A DNA stretch of 12,061 bases, taken from the IMG/VR virus record IMGVR_UViG_2648501669_000026; one strand, 5' to 3'. The stretch's first letter is position 1, and each line of letters opens with the position of its first letter. The notes beneath the pieces are model-generated. The model worked only from the letters and a program-made list of their open reading frames with translations. It had not been told where the DNA came from and searched no databases. Shown in pieces: positions 2,371-10,206 of the stretch. Made by a program: the position numbers and the translations under genes. Origin of the DNA: a virus. Lineage: Duplodnaviria; Heunggongvirae; Uroviricota; Caudoviricetes.

Positions 2371-3423
2371 ATGTTTTTTAATATTAATGACCTGAAAGAT
2401 AAAGCCGGAAGCGTGCTTGAAAATATCAATATTTCATCTCCAGCGGTGAACGAAAATGAAACTGACATTAATAGCGCGCTTGCAGAAAAAGATCTTTACG
2501 CACGCATCAGTGCATACACACAAAAAAATCCGTTTGTGCATTTTATTTCGCCCTCTAACTGGCTTTCCGGGCAAATAAAATACCTGTCAGTTAATCCGCA
2601 TCAGTCCGCTATTAACCTTATTGGGGATGCGCGCTTATCCACCGGACGCGCAGAGGAAGGACGCTTTAGCCGTGCCATGGATATTAAAGGCTCTCCGATT
2701 GAATGCTATGAGATGGACTCATGCGAATATCTCGACTGGATTAACTTGGTTGTGATGGCCAATGTGGCGAATGACGACAAAAACCGCGATGCACTGCTGG
2801 GGATTTTGTGTGGCTATCTGACCAGCAAAATTTATCTGGACGATCTGCGGATTGGCTTTAACGGCAAGTCAGCGGCAACCTTCACCACACCGGACACCAA
2901 CCCGAACGGCGAGGATGTTGCGCCCGGCTGGCATGAAATTGCCAGGAAGGCAAGCGAAGGACGACAGATTATCAGCGATGCCATTACGCTGGGCGCAGGT
3001 GGTGATTTTCCGGGGGTAGATGCACTGGCGCAGCATCTGATTAAAACGAAAATTGCCGCACAGTGGCAGAACGATCCACGCCTTGTGGTGATGGTGGGAT
3101 CAGAACTTGCAGCTGCCGAACGTCTGCGTCTTTTCAGCACCGCAAACGGCGCAGGAGATACCGAAGCCGCCAGCGCATGGGGAAGCACCATTGCCGGGCA
3201 TTTTGCCTTTGTGCCACCGTTTATGCCGGGTAAACGTCTGGCTGTGACCACACTCCCGAACCTGCTGATTAACATCATTGAAGGCTCTTACCGCACAGAG
3301 TTCGATATGAACAAAGACACCAAACGCCTGAACATGCGGGCATGGCGTCATCAGGGCTACGGGCTGGCGGATGTGAATCTTTACGCGGCAGTGGATGAGG
3401 GCGCGATTACGCTTAATCCGTGA
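2371..3423 (+). CDS. Putative P2 GpN-family major capsid-like protein (tentative)
   Basis: ATG 2371 with AAGGGG 5-6 nt upstream; the ORF-track start at 2299 overlaps the preceding gene and is rejected. Collinear motifs GFNG, NP-x3-DVAPGW, GAGGDFPGVDAL and DPRLVVMVGSEL match P2 GpN as I recall it (GFNG, DVAVGW, GKGGDYASLDAL, DPDLVVIVGRQL). Size 350 aa versus 357 aa for GpN. Based on memory only. Confidence 0.55.
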   Translation: MFFNINDLKDKAGSVLENINISSPAVNENETDINSALAEKDLYARISAYTQKNPFVHFISPSNWLSGQIKYLSVNPHQSAINLIGDARLSTGRAEEGRFSRAMDIKGSPIECYEMDSCEYLDWINLVVMANVANDDKNRDALLGILCGYLTSKIYLDDLRIGFNGKSAATFTTPDTNPNGEDVAPGWHEIARKASEGRQIISDAITLGAGGDFPGVDALAQHLIKTKIAAQWQNDPRLVVMVGSELAAAERLRLFSTANGAGDTEAASAWGSTIAGHFAFVPPFMPGKRLAVTTLPNLLINIIEGSYRTEFDMNKDTKRLNMRAWRHQGYGLADVNLYAAVDEGAITLNP

Positions 3424-3460: not shown

Positions 3461-3574
3461 GCTAACCACAAAAGGAAAAATCTACGAATCTACAGTTCGG
3501 GAATGATTATGAACTTTTTACGTACAGAAATCAATCACTCAGCGCAATCACGCAAAAATAATTTGCAATATTAC

Positions 3575-3604
3575 TTGACTCGCTTTTTTGTCATGGCGTA
3601 TCGT
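3575..3604 (+). promoter_or_regulatory. Candidate sigma70-type promoter for the early operon
   Basis: TTGACT (3575..3580), 18-bp spacer, TATCGT (3599..3604). Paired AATCAC half-sites lie just upstream (3530..3550). Sequence-only prediction. Confidence 0.3.
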
Positions 3605-3633
3605 TTGCCCGCACCTCATAAAGCGGGTGCCGG

Positions 3634-3817
3634 GTTTGACAGCCTGATTGTTAGAGCGGGTAGCCGCTATATTTCCGTAATGCGGTTTTTTTGTGCCCGT
3701 AATTCCACCCTACCCCGTATTATGGCGGGGCGTAATGGGGGAGCCTTTGCGCTCGCTGGTTTCTCTAACGCCAGTCTGTCAACCCTGTTACGTCCCGCCA
3801 CCATGTTTGACAGCGTG
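3634..3817 (+). promoter_or_regulatory. Untranslated leader with a 13-bp repeat triplet, P4 seqA/seqB/seqC-like
   Basis: GTTTGACAGCCTG (3634..3646) and GTTTGACAGCGTG (3805..3817) are direct repeats, 12/13 identical. CAGTCTGTCAACC (3772..3784) is an imperfect inverted copy (11/13 pairing). A short hairpin plus T7 run sits at 3680..3700. No SD-supported ORF between 3465 and 3856. Confidence 0.3.
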
Positions 3818-3856
3818 CTGGCGAGACTCCGTAAATCAGTTAGAGGAGCCGCCAAA

Positions 3857-4030
3857 ATGGCTATATCAACACGCCCTGATTTTATCTGGCGCTTTATGCA
3901 GTGCCACGGTAAAAATATTCGCCTTCATACCGTTACCGCTGCCAGTGAGCGCGAAGCGCGCGCCATGCTTCCGGCATCCCGTCTGGTCTTTGTTGCCCGT
4001 ATCCGTGTCCGGGAGGCGTGCCATGTTTAA
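3857..4030 (+). CDS. Small 57-aa protein, candidate Icd-like (host cell division inhibitor-like) family
   Basis: ATG 3857 with GAGGAG 8 nt upstream. The segment FIWRF...VTAASEREARAMLP...LVFVARIRV resembles the Icd-like small proteins I recall from P4-type prophages. The ORF-track extension back to 3395 overlaps the upstream gene and hairpin and has no SD. Confidence 0.5.
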   Translation: MAISTRPDFIWRFMQCHGKNIRLHTVTAASEREARAMLPASRLVFVARIRVREACHV

Positions 4031-4213: not shown

Positions 4214-4402
4214 ATGTACGAAATTCATATTAAATTGTGTAATGTGATTACGGGAGAAGAAGCAAACTATCGCGCGCCACTTAAATATAAATCGAGAAAA
4301 GAAGCGGCAATTGATGTATTCAGGTATGCAGAAGAAATTTCATCTAAATACCAGGGAGCAGAAGAAGAACTCACAGTATCAGCGGTGGAGGCAGAGCAAT
4401 GA
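4214..4402 (+). CDS. Hypothetical small acidic protein (62 aa), AT-rich
   Basis: ATG 4214 with GGAGGGG 5 nt upstream. About 35-40% GC by hand count. Stop overlaps the next start (ATGA at 4399..4402). Confidence 0.5.
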   Translation: MYEIHIKLCNVITGEEANYRAPLKYKSRKEAAIDVFRYAEEISSKYQGAEEELTVSAVEAEQ

Positions 4403-4617
4403 AAACCCGTTCAACATCCCGTAAAAATAATGGCAGTGGTGAAAAACGTTTCTTTGTGCTGGGTTATGCCGTTAATAAGCGCGGGTTAACCAAACATGCA
4501 CATGCAACGGTATACGGAACGGGGCCGGGCGAAGCCATACGCCGCGCAGCCGAAGGACTGGAAGAGCTGGGAATGACACATTTCAGGGCGTTGAAGGTTA
4601 CGCAGCTTTCTGCCTGA
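4399..4617 (+). CDS. Hypothetical small basic protein (72 aa)
   Basis: ATG 4399 with GGTGGAGG 7 nt upstream; 4-nt overlap with the preceding ORF suggests translational coupling. Confidence 0.5.
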   Translation: MKTRSTSRKNNGSGEKRFFVLGYAVNKRGLTKHAHATVYGTGPGEAIRRAAEGLEELGMTHFRALKVTQLSA

Positions 4618-4684
4618 TTCCCGAATTACCAACTGATAACTGAATTCAATTTATATTTCGGCCTTAACGGTCGGGGAGTTTTTT

Positions 4685-4990
4685 ATGTCTGAAAATCAGA
4701 ATTACGCAAATCTTTTACATAAAGAATATGTTGGTTTTTTTACAGAGGATGCAAAAGAAGATCTCACAGATGTAATTAGTCTCGTCAACCTTATATCTAT
4801 CATGTTTGATGAAAGAAGCTGCGGAGTGGGTGCAGAAATTACCAATAAAGATATTACATCTCTGTCTAATATTATTAGTCGGGAATTACAATCAATAAAA
4901 TCAGGTATGCATCTTTCTGGCGGCATTTTTTCATGGCGTCAGGCTGAAGCAGCAGGGATTGCCCGGAAACAAGAAGTAACGAGTAATTAA
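4685..4990 (+). CDS. Hypothetical 101-aa protein, AT-rich cargo-like gene just upstream of the primase
   Basis: ATG 4685 with GGGGAG 7 nt upstream. About 25-37% GC versus about 50% in flanking genes. No recognisable motif. The - strand ORF 4702..4926 overlapping it is treated as antisense artefact. Confidence 0.55.
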   Translation: MSENQNYANLLHKEYVGFFTEDAKEDLTDVISLVNLISIMFDERSCGVGAEITNKDITSLSNIISRELQSIKSGMHLSGGIFSWRQAEAAGIARKQEVTSN

Positions 4991-4996
4991 TAAAAG

Positions 4997-5019
4997 CCCA
5001 CTGCAAAAGGTGCAGTGGG
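4997..5019 (+). terminator. Stable hairpin between the 101-aa ORF and the primase start; weak terminator or translational control element
   Basis: CCCACTGCA (4997..5005), loop AAAGG, TGCAGTGGG (5011..5019), a 9-bp perfect stem. No T-run downstream on +; the 3' arm abuts the primase SD GGAGGG (5020..5025). Confidence 0.3.
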
Positions 5020-5032
5020 GAGGGATTTATAT

Positions 5033-7702
5033 ATGAAACATAACACCAGAAAAGAGATTATTAACCGTCTTATTCGTGATTACAACTTTAAAGAAGAAAA
5101 TAATTATCTTCGCTATGGTGTTTGTCCGCAATGTGGAAAGAAGGAACTGTTTACCAGTCTTGAGAGGCCGTACATCGTACACTGTGGCCGCGAAAATAAA
5201 TGCGGTGCAGACCTGCTGACCAAAGAACTTTACCCGGATGTGTTTTCGTCATGGTCAGATCGCTATATCAGTACGAAAGACGATCCATACGCAGCGGCGG
5301 TAGCTTATCTTCAGGAGGCGCGCAATATTGCTGTGGAGCCACTGAAAGGGGCATTTACTCAGGAGCGATACCAGGACAAGGAAAGCGGCGAACAGGCCGC
5401 TACTGTGCGTTTTACGCTGGCTGACGGCGTGTGGTGGGAGCGCATCATAGACCGACCGGAACGCTTCGCTCGCAAGGCGAATTTTTCCGGCAGTTACAAG
5501 GGGCTGTGGTGGGCTTATCCGGGAGCGGATTTAAGCAAGGCCAAAGAAATCTGGATTTGTGAGGGTATCTTTGATGCCATCAGCCTTAACCAGAATGGCA
5601 TTGCGGCCGTTTCTGTCATGTCTGCCGTGAACTACCCTGATAAATCGCTGGAAGAACTGGCGAAGCTGTGCGGGGATAATCCACGCCCGGTTATCGTGTG
5701 GGCGCTGGATAACGGGCGTGCGGGTGAGCGTTACGCGAAAAAACATGCAGAACGCAGCGCCGAAGACGGCTGGAGAACGGCGGCAGCATTACCAGGTAAA
5801 AACAGCAATAAACGCGACTGGAATGATTTACACATCGCCGGAAAGCTGCGTGGCCATGATGTGAAAAGATATCGTTATTACGGTGATTTATTGTTGGCGA
5901 AATCGCCGAGAGATAAGGCACTAATAATGTTTTCCTTTCGTGAGCGAAAGGAGTTTTATTTTCCCTTTGATAACCGTATTTTCTGGTTCAAGCTGGATAT
6001 TGAGCGCCATATGAAGGCTGTTGAGCGTGTCATTAATGAGCGAAATGTTGACGAAAATGAAGCGCGCAAAATTGCACTTAAGGAATCCGGTGCAGTAAAA
6101 GAAATCGCAAACTGTAACCCAGTACCGCTTTATTACATTCGAAACAATGACACGGATGAAGCATGGTATTACTTCCGTGTTACGTTCCCGGATGGTGCGA
6201 CGGTGAAAAACACCTTTACATCAGGTCAATTAACATCCGCATCTGAATTTAAAAAACGCCTGTTGCATGTGGCAAAAGGTGGTATTTATACCGGAACGAC
6301 TGCGCACCTTGATGCATTAATAAAAAATGACCTTCCCGCAATAAAAAATGTTATCGGTCAGGATTTTATCGGATACAACAAAGAGATTGGCGCATGGCTG
6401 TTTAATGATGTCGCGGTTTGTAATGGTAAAACCTACGAAATCAATGAAGAGGATTATTTTGAAATTGATGGCATAAACGCAAAACCATTGAATAAAAAAC
6501 CAATATTGCAGATTAACTATAAAAAACCGGATGAATTTACAACGTCCTGGGTGGAAGATCTCTGGCTGGCGTTTGGTGAAAAGGGAATTATTACCCTGGC
6601 CTTCTGGCTGGGTTCGTTGTTCAGCGAACAAATCAGGCAGAAAAACGCATCTTACCCCTTTCTTGAGATTACCGGAGAGCCTGGAACGGGTAAAACAACG
6701 CTGATTGATTTTTGCTGGCGTTTGTGTGGCCGTGACAACTATGAAGGTGTTGATCCAACCAAAGGATCGGAATCAGGCTGGAAGCGAACTTTTGGACAGG
6801 TCGCCGGATTACCTGTTGTTCTGATTGAGGCAGACCGGGGGGACAATGCGCAAAAAAGAGGTGCGTTTGACTTTGATAACCTGAAAAGCCTCTATAACGG
6901 CGGTGGTATTGGGGTACGTGGTGTTAAAACTAATGATAACGCCACATATGACCCTGTTTTTAAAGGGGCTGTCGTGATTGCGCAGAATGCCACGGTAAAT
7001 GCCTCATCGGCAATTATCGAGCGTCTGGTACGTATATACACCGATAAAAAACGCCACTCACCAGATAGCCGACTGGCAGCAAAACGGCTGGAGCTTTACC
7101 CCGTTGAGCAGGTATCAGGTTTTATCCATCGGGCAGTAAGCCAGGAGCGGGCGATTATGGATTTGTTTATGGCACTCTCGGATCCTGAAACAGCCCGCCT
7201 TTACAGTTGCGAAAATATTCGCCATCAGCGTATTGCCAAAAATCACGCGCAACTAATTGCACTGGTCAGGGTGCTGAAATGCGTTATTGATATCCCGGAT
7301 GAATGGCTTGATGCCACATGTCTGGAACTGGAGCGAATGGCAGAGGAACAGGCTAAAGCGGTAATGGATGACTTGCCGGAAGTGATGGCGTTCTGGGAGG
7401 CGTTCGACTATCTGGACGGCATAACAGCATACGGCGTAAATCATTTTGGCAAGGGACGGCAGAATGAGTTTGCCGTCAGTATCCCGCAACTTGAGCAGGT
7501 TGCCGCCGTTCACCATGTGAAGATCCAAACCAATCCCGAAATGATAAAGCTTCTCAAGGCTGGCCGTTCTCGATCGCTGATTGGATACAAGCCCGTCCGT
7601 AGCGAGGTATCCAGACAGGCGAACGCCGGGAGGGGGATAGCCGAGGCCAGAGAGAAGGAGGTATTGAAATGCTGGATATTTAGTAACAAGGAGGGGGCTT
7701 AA
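5033..7702 (+). CDS. Bifunctional DNA primase/helicase (N-terminal zinc ribbon, TOPRIM primase, P-loop NTPase), P4 alpha-like replication protein
   Basis: ATG 5033 with GGAGGG 8 nt upstream; the ORF-track GTG at 5015 lies inside the hairpin. Zinc ribbon CPQCG...HCGRENKCG. TOPRIM motifs WICEGIFDAISL and VWALDNGRAGERYA. Walker A GEPGTGKTT and Walker B-like VVLIEAD. 889 aa. Confidence 0.9.
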   Translation: MKHNTRKEIINRLIRDYNFKEENNYLRYGVCPQCGKKELFTSLERPYIVHCGRENKCGADLLTKELYPDVFSSWSDRYISTKDDPYAAAVAYLQEARNIAVEPLKGAFTQERYQDKESGEQAATVRFTLADGVWWERIIDRPERFARKANFSGSYKGLWWAYPGADLSKAKEIWICEGIFDAISLNQNGIAAVSVMSAVNYPDKSLEELAKLCGDNPRPVIVWALDNGRAGERYAKKHAERSAEDGWRTAAALPGKNSNKRDWNDLHIAGKLRGHDVKRYRYYGDLLLAKSPRDKALIMFSFRERKEFYFPFDNRIFWFKLDIERHMKAVERVINERNVDENEARKIALKESGAVKEIANCNPVPLYYIRNNDTDEAWYYFRVTFPDGATVKNTFTSGQLTSASEFKKRLLHVAKGGIYTGTTAHLDALIKNDLPAIKNVIGQDFIGYNKEIGAWLFNDVAVCNGKTYEINEEDYFEIDGINAKPLNKKPILQINYKKPDEFTTSWVEDLWLAFGEKGIITLAFWLGSLFSEQIRQKNASYPFLEITGEPGTGKTTLIDFCWRLCGRDNYEGVDPTKGSESGWKRTFGQVAGLPVVLIEADRGDNAQKRGAFDFDNLKSLYNGGGIGVRGVKTNDNATYDPVFKGAVVIAQNATVNASSAIIERLVRIYTDKKRHSPDSRLAAKRLELYPVEQVSGFIHRAVSQERAIMDLFMALSDPETARLYSCENIRHQRIAKNHAQLIALVRVLKCVIDIPDEWLDATCLELERMAEEQAKAVMDDLPEVMAFWEAFDYLDGITAYGVNHFGKGRQNEFAVSIPQLEQVAAVHHVKIQTNPEMIKLLKAGRSRSLIGYKPVRSEVSRQANAGRGIAEAREKEVLKCWIFSNKEGA

Positions 7703-7704
7703 GT

Positions 7705-8706
7705 ATGTCGATCAGAAAGATGGATGATGGGCGATGGCTGCTCGATATCAGGCCACAAGGGGCGTACGGCAAACGGATACGTAAAATTTTTGTCAGGAAA
7801 GGGAGTGCAGAGGCCTTCGAACAATATATTTTACAGAATTTCCATAACAACCCATGGCTGGCTAAACCTGCTGATCGGCGGCGATTATCAGAGCTGCTTG
7901 ATACATGGTGGATGCTTGATGGCCGTAACCAGGCTTACGGCGATACCTACAGGATCCGGCTGGAGAAAGTGATTCGTGAAATGGGAGATCCGCGCGCCAG
8001 CCAGATGACGCAAAAATTTATGCTTGAGTATCGGTCAGAGAAATTACAGGCCGGCTTAATGCCATCCAGCATTAATCGTGACTTGTGCGTTCTGTCTACC
8101 ATGTTCACGGTGCTGATTGAAGCAGGGGTCTTTCACAACCCGAACCCTGTGCGCAGTATACGCAAGCTAAAAATTCAGAATACAGAGATGGCCTTTCTTT
8201 CTGATGATGAGATTGAACGGCTTCTTGAGCGACTGGAGGGGGATGCGCGTCGTGTTGCCATTCTGTGTCTTTCTACTGGTGCCCGATGGAGTGAAGCATC
8301 GGAACTACGTGGAGAGCATATCGTTGGCAACCGTGTGACGTTTTTTAACACCAAAAACGGAAAATCCCGCTCGGTTCCTGTGGCGGATTCGGTCGTGCCG
8401 CTGATTAAAACCCGTCGGACGGGGTTGTTGTATCAGGTTGATTATCTGGAGTTCCGGGAGATTCTTCAGGAGGTTAAGCCGGATTTGCCGAAGGGGCAGG
8501 CTACGCATGTTATGCGTCATACATTTGCCACACACTTTATGATGAATGGTGGGAATATCGTTACATTACAACGGATTCTTGGACATGCGACTATCCAGCA
8601 AACGATGACTTATGCGCATTTTTCTCCCGACTATCTGGCGGATGCCATGAGGTTTAACCCGATAGCTAACATGGCATTCACTGAACAAAAAGAGCCAGCA
8701 GAGTAA
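7705..8706 (+). CDS. int: Tyrosine recombinase / integrase, P2 Int-like
   Basis: 333 aa. Catalytic-domain motifs AILCLSTGARWSEA, HVMRHTFATHFM and LGHATIQQTMTYAHF; N-terminal DGRWLLDIRPQG...GKRIRK. Close to P2 Int in length and motifs as I recall it. ATG is 2 nt after the primase stop and shares the SD AAGGAGGGGG. Confidence 0.92.
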   Translation: MSIRKMDDGRWLLDIRPQGAYGKRIRKIFVRKGSAEAFEQYILQNFHNNPWLAKPADRRRLSELLDTWWMLDGRNQAYGDTYRIRLEKVIREMGDPRASQMTQKFMLEYRSEKLQAGLMPSSINRDLCVLSTMFTVLIEAGVFHNPNPVRSIRKLKIQNTEMAFLSDDEIERLLERLEGDARRVAILCLSTGARWSEASELRGEHIVGNRVTFFNTKNGKSRSVPVADSVVPLIKTRRTGLLYQVDYLEFREILQEVKPDLPKGQATHVMRHTFATHFMMNGGNIVTLQRILGHATIQQTMTYAHFSPDYLADAMRFNPIANMAFTEQKEPAE

Positions 8707-9715: not shown

Positions 9716-10206
9716 GTGATGTTCATGACTGCAGATAGGGTGCCGTTCCGGCCTTTACCCTGGCAACCGATTGACGGGGAAGTTGACTTCCCCGTCGCGG
9801 TTCCTTACTGTGTAGACTTACATTGTAAGAATGCCGCAATTTCCGTTCCTGCAAACCTGAATCGCAACTCACAAGGTGATGTGTGGAGGATCCAGATTAT
9901 CGCTACTGCGGTTAAACACAGTAGCAGGGTTTTTAACGGAATTTGCGTCATAGCGCTTGCTCCTTTGGTGGAGAGGCGCTAACCTTCTACTTGTCAAGGT
10001 ACGAAGTGTTAGGGCCTCGGGTTAACATTAAAGTTGACTCGGGGCCTTTCCACATCTGGCCTTCGGGTATTCCCTCCGACCATCAGCCGAAAGGCACCCG
10101 CAGCGATTCTAGCCTGGTTGCCATACCCGCATCAATCACCCGCCACATCGCTTTATCGCTCGCAAATCAGCAACCTGACGCTACTTTACGTCGCTCTGTC
10201 CGGCAT

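Follow-up and report, generated by a model that had tools for sequence, protein, structure and literature searches.

A hypervariable early gene before the primase of P4-type satellites of Escherichia coli, a possible replacement of Epsilon

The stretch of viral DNA analyzed here (IMG/VR record IMGVR_UViG_2648501669_000026; 12,061 nucleotides [nt], referred to as the window) is a satellite of the P4/GN-PICI type (Gram-negative phage-inducible chromosomal island) of Escherichia coli, with P2-like helpers. Directly upstream of its primase-helicase gene lies a small AT-rich gene, orf101 (positions 4685 to 4990, plus strand), which we found to be a resident early gene of these elements and not an insert. 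A satellite of P2-like phages has to activate its helper, and, to our knowledge, the only protein known to do so is Epsilon of P4, the derepression protein, an anti-repressor that binds the C repressor of P2. The unannotated and very small family of orf101 occupies the position of Epsilon in satellites without Epsilon. We propose, with a probability of roughly 45%, that orf101 is a non-homologous replacement of Epsilon that would neutralize a variable partner, most plausibly the helper repressor, with alleles matched to the partner types. The gene is separated from the primase gene by a hairpin (4997 to 5019) that is selected for its structure and marks the boundary between the block of small genes and the replicase gene.

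The slot upstream of the primase in related satellites

The early operon of the window runs in the order C4/CI RNA, Icd/Ash-like open reading frame (ORF), two genes of 62 amino acids (aa), orf72, orf101, hairpin, primase-helicase gene, and second integrase gene. The conserved left flank of the slot, orf72 (4399 to 4617, plus strand), has a GC content of 51.1% and the primase-helicase gene (5033 to 7702, plus strand; 889 aa) one of 47.5%, against 35.9% for orf101 (47, 36, and 24.5% at the first, second, and third codon positions) and 46.5% for the whole window. Along orf101, 50-nt sub-windows have 28, 34, 42, 28, 32, and 56% GC. The dip is real and is not unique, given that 7.6% of the 306-nt segments of the window are equally low and that two other genes are also AT-rich (orf346, 35.8%; orf62b, 39.6%). 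The gene starts with ATG and has its own Shine-Dalgarno sequence (SD; GGGGAG, 4673 to 4678, 6 nt upstream of the ATG), so that the AT-rich gene with its own SD described by an earlier reading of the letters (the sequence-only reading) is confirmed. This SD is located in a spacer of 67 nt (4618 to 4684, plus strand). The spacer also holds a weak, G-U-rich hairpin (4656 to 4676) with only 4 G-C pairs, followed by AGTTTTTT, which overlaps the SD and appears as a plus-strand entry in a terminator-like scan.

The occupants of the slot were followed in 189 fetched loci, which are phylogenetically non-independent; a contig search with a single primase sequence gave one locus. Each of the relatives examined at this junction has a small gene between orf72 and the primase gene. 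Among 43 slot loci, it belongs to the orf101 family in 33 and to the Epsilon family of P4 in 8 (41 in all), and the slot genes of the remaining two (L009, 112 aa; L015, 103 aa) match neither family. The distribution of the two families is complementary. A first six-frame scan (expect value [E] ≤1e-4) detected orf101 in 24 loci, Epsilon in 8 (P4 and seven satellite loci), and both in none. The total for orf101 reaches 33 loci after adding L184 to L189 and L020 to L023, and in L184 to L189 there was no Epsilon even at E ≤0.1, nor Cnr (ORF106), the negative regulator of P4 replication that acts on alpha. The sister satellites L004/L031, L012 to L014, L019, and L114 carry an Epsilon-family gene in the same slot, with scores for the Pfam family PF25738 of 71 bits (L004), 82 bits (L012), and 36 bits (L019).

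The position of the orf101 family is remarkably constant. It is found directly 5' of the primase gene in the window, L001, L003, L007/L008, L023 to L030, L033, and L104 to L108. When the N terminus of the primase is at least 73% identical (tblastn, residues 1 to 120), an orf101-family gene adjoins the primase gene in all loci except L009, L010, and L011, and the position is held over primase identities ranging from 100% to 50% (L033). The family also adjoins a second primase family (Zn_Ribbon_Prim/Toprim_3/DUF927) in L184 to L189, and in L020 to L022 it precedes an N-terminal fragment that matches this second family. A homologue of orf72 always precedes the orf101-family gene; such homologues are located directly 5' of the slot gene in L004, L007, L010, L019, L020, L023, L184, and L187. 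In L185 (3636 to 6752), a 197-aa ORF lies between the orf101-like gene and a shortened primase of 731 aa, and in the near-identical L184 an 888-aa primase gene directly follows the orf101-like gene; the primase of L185 is probably disrupted.

All orf101 alleles have 34 to 40% GC in loci of 43 to 49%, and most Epsilon genes are equally AT-rich. Since every allele is AT-rich, the low GC is a property of the gene family and not a sign of recent import. The sequence-only reading had taken orf101 for a compositionally foreign insertion in a cargo slot. The insertion does not stand, with a slot that is always filled, alleles that are all AT-rich, and a position that is kept before two primase families. 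Of the cargo slot, what survives is that the position is variable, with different orf101 alleles and, in sister satellites, Epsilon; what fills it is not cargo, as two families account for 41 of the 43 loci and orf101 has no PADLOC match. The comparison of the same junction in related islands, which that reading had called for, gave a similarly divided answer: an unrelated gene, Epsilon, in sister satellites, but every junction filled and an orf101 family of uniformly low GC. The unrelated gene content between core genes that characterizes a cargo or defense hotspot is not found in this slot, nor is the position, which had been considered as a possible recognized satellite hotspot, among the published ones of P4, i.e., int-psu, sid-alpA, and primase-att (PMC8628076, PMC13586616).

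Sequence diversity of orf101

We surveyed 5,426 complete E. coli genomes, 66 of which carry a full-length primase gene at ≥88% nucleotide identity. The junction region was found in the 66 islands, and orf72 is present in 66 of 66, with 90 to 99% nucleotide identity. By sensitive blastn, orf101 is detectable in only 58 of the 66 genomes, full-length in 31, and at 60 to 80% identity in 28. Between islands with flanks that are 91 to 99% identical, nucleotide identity across positions 4733 to 5032 falls to 47 to 54%. At the protein level, identity to the window is 95 to 99% for orf72 and for residues 1 to 300 of the primase, and 36 to 70% for orf101. The number of synonymous substitutions per synonymous site (dS) is 0.5 to 1.1 in orf101 versus 0.1 to 0.25 in the flanks, i.e., 4 to 8 times higher, with values near saturation for the most distant alleles. 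This excess in dS points to alleles of far greater age than the DNA around them. The ratio of nonsynonymous to synonymous substitution (dN/dS) is 0.23 to 0.70 (0.14 in one near-identical pair), with ca. 0.1 for the primase; being below 1, it shows that orf101 is truly coding and under purifying selection. Old alleles appear to have been exchanged through homologous recombination in the conserved flanks, a step suggested by the pattern of divergence.

A second, milder trough of divergence is located at orf62b (4214 to 4402), with a protein that is 64 to 68% identical (74 to 80% in nucleotides) to that of most close relatives, next to neighbors of >95%. This suggests two allele classes for orf62b.

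Predicted product

The product of orf101 (101 aa) is acidic, with an isoelectric point of 4.9, and those of all alleles range from 4.7 to 5.4. We found 48 homologues at 56 to 97% identity, none of them with a Pfam domain, and the family is tiny: clustering at 50% leaves 14 representatives in a set of 1.84 billion proteins. Residues 1 to 30 and 59 to 91 are the most conserved, with the motifs Y-GFFTE, DVI, and SL-NI-REL-IKSG-SGGIFSW, and between them lies a hypervariable core at about residues 31 to 58 (nt 4775 to 4858). In an AlphaFold2 model obtained with a deeper alignment (predicted local distance difference test [pLDDT], 72.9), a first strand leads into two long helices, which are followed by a second strand and a short helix; the hypervariable residues correspond to the end of helix 1, the loop between the helices, and the start of helix 2. 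A model from a shallow alignment (pLDDT 55) was not used.

Database searches gave little information. There was no Pfam match for orf101 even at E ≤10, no PHROG match for 19 family members, no PADLOC match, and no match in a sequence-profile search of the PDB; tblastn against 50,697 phage records produced a chance match only (E = 0.6), and Foldseek of the model against BFVD returned nothing at E ≤0.001. Neither the orf101 family nor the hairpin was found described in literature searches. Homology with two proteins of P4 was considered and rejected. For Epsilon, there was no PF25738 match at E ≤10, while the positive controls (P4 Epsilon and the slot genes of L004, L012, and L019) score 36 to 170 bits, and hhalign of the family alignments gave 0.4%. 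For Cnr, there was no BLASTP alignment, hhalign gave 0.4%, and there was no match to DUF5375 (PF17345), for which P4 ORF106 scores 211 bits.

Possible function of orf101

We read orf101 as a replacement of Epsilon because of the same position, the complementary distribution, the expected coexpression with the replicase under C4/CI immunity, and the old, recombining alleles, in which a surface patch varies. The position is that of Epsilon in detail: within the early operon, with an orf72 homologue on the 5' side and the hairpin and primase gene on the 3' side. Once the RNA immunity is lifted, early synthesis of orf101 would accompany that of the replicase. The protein would then bind and neutralize a variable partner, most likely the helper repressor or else another allele-specific protein of helper or host, and each allele would fit one partner type. 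Long-lived, recombining alleles are what is expected of a factor that has to match a variable partner. In P4-like variants without epsilon, a former study found certain accessory genes to be overrepresented, and its authors interpreted these genes as possible functional replacements (PMC8628076). If our proposal is true, orf101 would be a second, unrelated solution to helper takeover, and its series of alleles would predict which helpers can be exploited by each island.

Several observations weigh against this proposal. In L010 and L011, a distant member of the orf101 family (E = 3.5e-10) is located two genes upstream of the slot, and the slot gene is weakly Epsilon-like (Pfam E = 0.02, below threshold), so that the two families may co-occur there. 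By hhalign, orf101 and Epsilon are unrelated (probability of 0.4%), and Epsilon proteins are basic to mildly acidic while orf101 is uniformly acidic. The structural model is only moderate (pLDDT 72.9), without a specific structural match, and no gene-wide positive selection could be detected, with dN/dS at 0.23 to 0.70. Finally, the slot directly 5' of the primase gene is also the position of cnr in P4.

This shared position gives rise to the strongest competitor, which we nonetheless consider unlikely: by analogy, orf101 might be a Cnr-like copy-number regulator that would bind the primase-helicase and restrain replication. The cnr gene of P4 (ORF106, DUF5375) sits 14 nt 5' of alpha, as orf101 directly precedes the replicase gene; the sizes are close (101 versus 106 aa), and no DUF5375 gene was found in the satellites that carry orf101. 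In the canonical P4-like interval between epsilon and alpha, cnr is present in 90% of the elements and a 75-aa protein in 61% (PMC8628076). However, there is no similarity to orf101 in sequence or profile, and the Epsilon-bearing sister satellites have no Cnr-like gene at this place, so that the slot is not reserved for Cnr. Besides, a protein fitted to the primase would not be expected to precede two unrelated primase families, nor to have alleles that differ by 30 to 65% beside primases that are 95 to 99% identical. Still less probable is a horizontally acquired cargo gene (defense, anti-defense, or interference) in a cargo slot of the operon. Such an origin would go well with the low GC (24.5% at third codon positions), with the spacers that flank orf101 on both sides, and with its extreme divergence between near-identical islands. 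Nevertheless, the slot is filled in every relative examined, by only two families of small proteins in all but two loci, the low GC is common to all alleles and to most Epsilon genes, PADLOC gave no match, and the known hotspots of P4 are at other sites (PMC8628076, PMC13586616). Truly unrelated AT-rich content is found instead between the left integrase gene and alpA (1 to 1041).

This interval seems to be the true cargo slot of the element. It holds orf346 (1 to 1041; 35.8% GC). The orf346 protein is only 26% identical to the one encoded at the corresponding site of L001, although the rest of that island is 80 to 100% identical. At this position, other relatives have genes of 199 to 354 aa without a tblastn match to orf346, or no gene at all. 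No Pfam or PADLOC match was found for orf346. The cargo idea is thus corrected as to place, the slot of real cargo in this family of elements apparently being between the left integrase gene and alpA.

The hairpin between orf101 and the primase gene

The coding sequence of orf101 ends in a double stop, TAATAA, within an A-rich run (4985 to 4996, plus strand; AATTAATAAAAG) that is a U run on the minus strand. The hairpin begins 6 nt past the double stop and has a perfect stem of 9 bp, with 6 G-C pairs, and a loop of 5 nt (5' arm, 4997 to 5005, CCCACTGCA; loop, AAAGG, 5006 to 5010; 3' arm, 5011 to 5019, TGCAGTGGG). The hairpin folds at −16.6 kcal/mol in RNAfold (z = −2.66), a stability that 3 of 200 shuffles also attain. 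The start region of the primase gene follows (5017 to 5035, plus strand), with the SD GGGGAGGG at 5017 to 5024 and the ATG at 5033 to 5035; RefSeq, too, places the start at this ATG in L001, an island that is 96% identical. A GTG in frame with the primase (5015 to 5017) lies inside the 3' arm. The sequence-only reading was accurate in describing a perfect 9-bp hairpin that adjoins the primase SD and has the GTG in its 3' arm; that it masks the start region was overstated. Of the SD core GGAGG (5019 to 5023), a single base is paired, with 13 nt between the stem and the ATG, and so the hairpin abuts the start region but does not mask it. The sequence of the hairpin is single copy in the window, and with one copy only a REP-type repeat (repetitive extragenic palindrome) was rejected.

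Hairpins at this place are widespread among relatives. A stem of −9 kcal/mol or lower, 10 to 20 nt 5' of the start, is present in 14 of 16 non-redundant regions upstream of primases ≥70% identical, compared with 5% of the controls. The hairpins of relatives have at least nine unrelated stem sequences, for example, CCCCACTGCA, CCCCCTGTA, ACCCCACCGT, TCCCCGCTGCA, AAAGCGCCG, AAGCGCCCT, GGGCGCTAT, TGCGCTGACC, and AAAATGCAC. In the closest group, there are compensatory double changes at four pairs, and 95.7% of the cells are paired, a level reached by 0 of 500 shuffles; this count covers the close group, as MAFFT did not align the differing stem types by column. The hairpin is kept after orf101 or Epsilon alike and before either primase family, and P4 itself lacks it. 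Nearly all satellite relatives have the motif AATAAAA 5' of the hairpin, even when the stop of the slot gene is 30 nt further upstream. The enrichment, the diversity of stems, and the compensatory changes together are the reason to consider that the hairpin is selected for its structure. It represents a defined, testable control element before the replicase gene.

The hairpin is a G+C-rich stem-loop such as those of intrinsic terminators. The letters after the stem are GAGGGAUUUAUAU on the plus strand, without a U tract, and CUUUUAUUAA, which is U-rich, on the minus strand; a terminator scan scores it on the minus strand only. Judging from the sequence, the hairpin has all the features of an intrinsic terminator for leftward transcription. 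Since no U tract follows the stem in the window, the hairpin cannot be an efficient terminator of the rightward mRNA. On that mRNA it would more likely be a stem for stability, for processing, or for insulation of the ribosome-binding site, 5' of a free SD. In some relatives, UUU(U) follows the stem on the plus strand, and in these it could act as a leaky attenuator that keeps replicase expression low. The suggestion that the hairpin terminates or attenuates read-through into the primase gene is right about a real, selected element, but in the window this element lacks the plus-strand U tract.

Two other roles for the hairpin have been weighed, and neither seems probable. One is that it controls translation of the primase on the rightward mRNA, either by masking the SD and the alternative start or by coupling to the termination of orf101. 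The stem does end inside GGGGAGGG, and the stop of orf101 is 6 nt from the stem, so that a terminating ribosome would open it. We give this little credit, given the single paired base of GGAGG, the 13 nt to the ATG, and an SD clear of the stem in most relatives, among them L009, L010, L012, L015, L019, L023, and L184; in several of these loci the stop of the slot gene is ca. 30 nt 5' of the stem, which means that masking and coupling are not conserved, although the hairpin is. The coupling of primase translation to the upstream gene, put forward in the sequence-only reading, is improbable on the same grounds. Moreover, RefSeq does not annotate the GTG as a start, and the other stem types do not contain its sequence.

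Equally improbable, in our opinion, is that the hairpin serves as the terminator of a cis-antisense RNA of ca. 60 nt (minus strand, from ca. 5050 to 4988) that would cover the SD and ATG of the primase gene and hold replicase translation down. Antisense control of this sort is known for RNA-OUT of IS10, sar of P22, and the copy-control RNAs of plasmids, and, if true, this would be a plasmid-like replicase control in P4/PICI-type satellites, on top of the C4/CI RNA immunity. The canonical terminator is on the minus strand only (stem, then CUUUUAUUAA), the A run is conserved in relatives, and for the predicted RNA of 63 nt the fold consists of a 5' tail and the terminator. A speculative promoter-like match, TTGTAA-17-AATAAT (5057 to 5085, minus strand), has its −10 element ending at +25 of the primase gene, and it is found at the same place in all 13 satellite representatives of the Toprim_2 type that were scanned, with scores of 8 to 10 out of 12. 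However, a shuffle of synonymous codons indicated that this match follows from the conserved peptide EII(N/K)RLI..DYxFKE (P = 0.06 to 0.9), and similar matches occur 1.2 times per kb on the minus strand. The second primase family has no such match, though the hairpin and A run are kept, and there is no Rfam match for the antisense RNA.

A different arrangement is seen in eight loci with distant environmental primase homologues (42 to 50% identity; L042, L047, L052, L131, L133, L134, L151, and L171), where a hairpin is followed by a conserved motif, GGGAYTYYTTTTGCCC, ca. 20 to 40 nt 5' of the primase start. This element may be a terminator or a binding site.

Overall organization of the island

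The assignment of the window to the P4/GN-PICI type is based on the C4 RNA, the AlpA, P2 capsid, Toprim, and integrase domains, and the RefSeq context, including Ogr/Delta. In E. coli chromosomes, the close relatives of the island are flanked by gcd and hpt. Their left part contains, in order, an integrase gene, a variable gene, an AlpA-type regulator, orf291, and a P2-family major capsid protein; the middle part, the Icd/Ash-like ORF, three small genes, orf101, and the Toprim primase-helicase; and the right part, the second integrase, Ogr/Delta, and hok, followed by hpt. In L001, the annotation includes the left integrase and the Ogr/Delta gene; in the window, Pfam identified alpA and an integrase domain.

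The C4/CI antisense RNA is the RNA immunity system of P4, and in the window, too, such a module (3598 to 3805, plus strand) heads the early operon, within the Icd/Ash-like ORF (3509 to 4030), the counterpart of which in L001 is labeled Icd-like by RefSeq. On the plus strand, it comprises a c4-a1b1-like match (3598 to 3650; Rfam, 30.3 bits, under the gathering score), an isrK-like match (3611 to 3692; 49 bits, slightly below its gathering threshold of 50), and the C4/CI antisense RNA itself (3718 to 3805; Rfam C4, 72.8 bits versus a gathering score of 45), to which the first two would be adjoining target sequences.

The primase-helicase has a Zn finger, Toprim, and P-loop (Pfam Toprim_2 and Toprim_3). 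This domain layout is that of P4 alpha, although the sequence family differs, with only local matches to alpha at 21 to 32%; P2-like prophages use the same primase family as the window. No Psu or Sid domain was found in the 10 window ORFs scanned with Pfam, and no Epsilon was detected in the element, so that the P4-like core set of seven (int, psu, delta, sid, alpA, epsilon, plus alpha; PMC8628076) is incomplete in the window.

Other features of the island can also be mentioned. A P2-family major capsid gene (2371 to 3423; Pfam E = 5e-44) is present in this satellite without a detected sid or psu domain. In relatives it is located either before the early operon (window, L001, L007, and L012) or after ogr (L004, L010, and L184), and capsid genes and C4/isrK RNAs are frequent in P4-like and Gram-negative PICI islands (PMC10111431). 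The second tyrosine recombinase (Int_N plus Phage_integrase; 7705 to 8706) begins 3 nt past the primase stop and is retained 3' of the primase gene in L001, L003, L004, L007, L010, L019, L023, and L187; the P2-like prophages with this primase have an integrase of their own of the same type. At the right end of the island there is a hok/sok addiction module, with a sok-like antisense RNA match (9946 to 10099, minus strand; 42.7 bits, under the gathering score of 59) that adjoins the Hok/Gef gene annotated in L001.

Comparison with known systems

As a whole, the window resembles P4-like elements and Gram-negative PICIs in having int, alpA, a unidirectional early operon, a primase, Ogr/Delta, C4/isrK RNAs, and a capsid homologue. 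It differs from them in that no sid, psu, or epsilon domain was detected, the primase is not of the P4-alpha type, a P2-family capsid gene is present, and the primase is followed by a second integrase. Like P4 Epsilon, orf101 would be small, produced early, and subject to C4/CI RNA immunity in a satellite that depends on P2, and it is encoded in the same slot and has a complementary distribution; unlike it, orf101 is acidic and has no similarity in sequence or profile to the basic to mildly acidic Epsilon, and its anti-repressor activity is putative. With P4 Cnr it shares a size of ca. 100 aa and the place of last early-operon gene before the primase-helicase gene. There is no similarity between the two proteins, though, P4 has no hairpin between cnr and alpha, and the alleles of orf101 vary freely beside near-identical primases and occur with two primase families.

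The sharp trough of identity in flanks of 95 to 99%, with a dS several times higher, recalls the mosaic immunity and anti-repressor modules of temperate phages. Here, however, the unit is a single gene of 0.3 kb plus the hairpin, without a repressor or an operator inside. For the hairpin, a loose parallel is the rpsU-dnaG-rpoD operon of E. coli, in which the internal terminator T1 before dnaG is thought to keep primase expression low. In both cases a stem-loop is located directly 5' of a primase gene within an operon, but the hairpin of the window has no U tract on the coding strand, and its terminator features point the opposite way.

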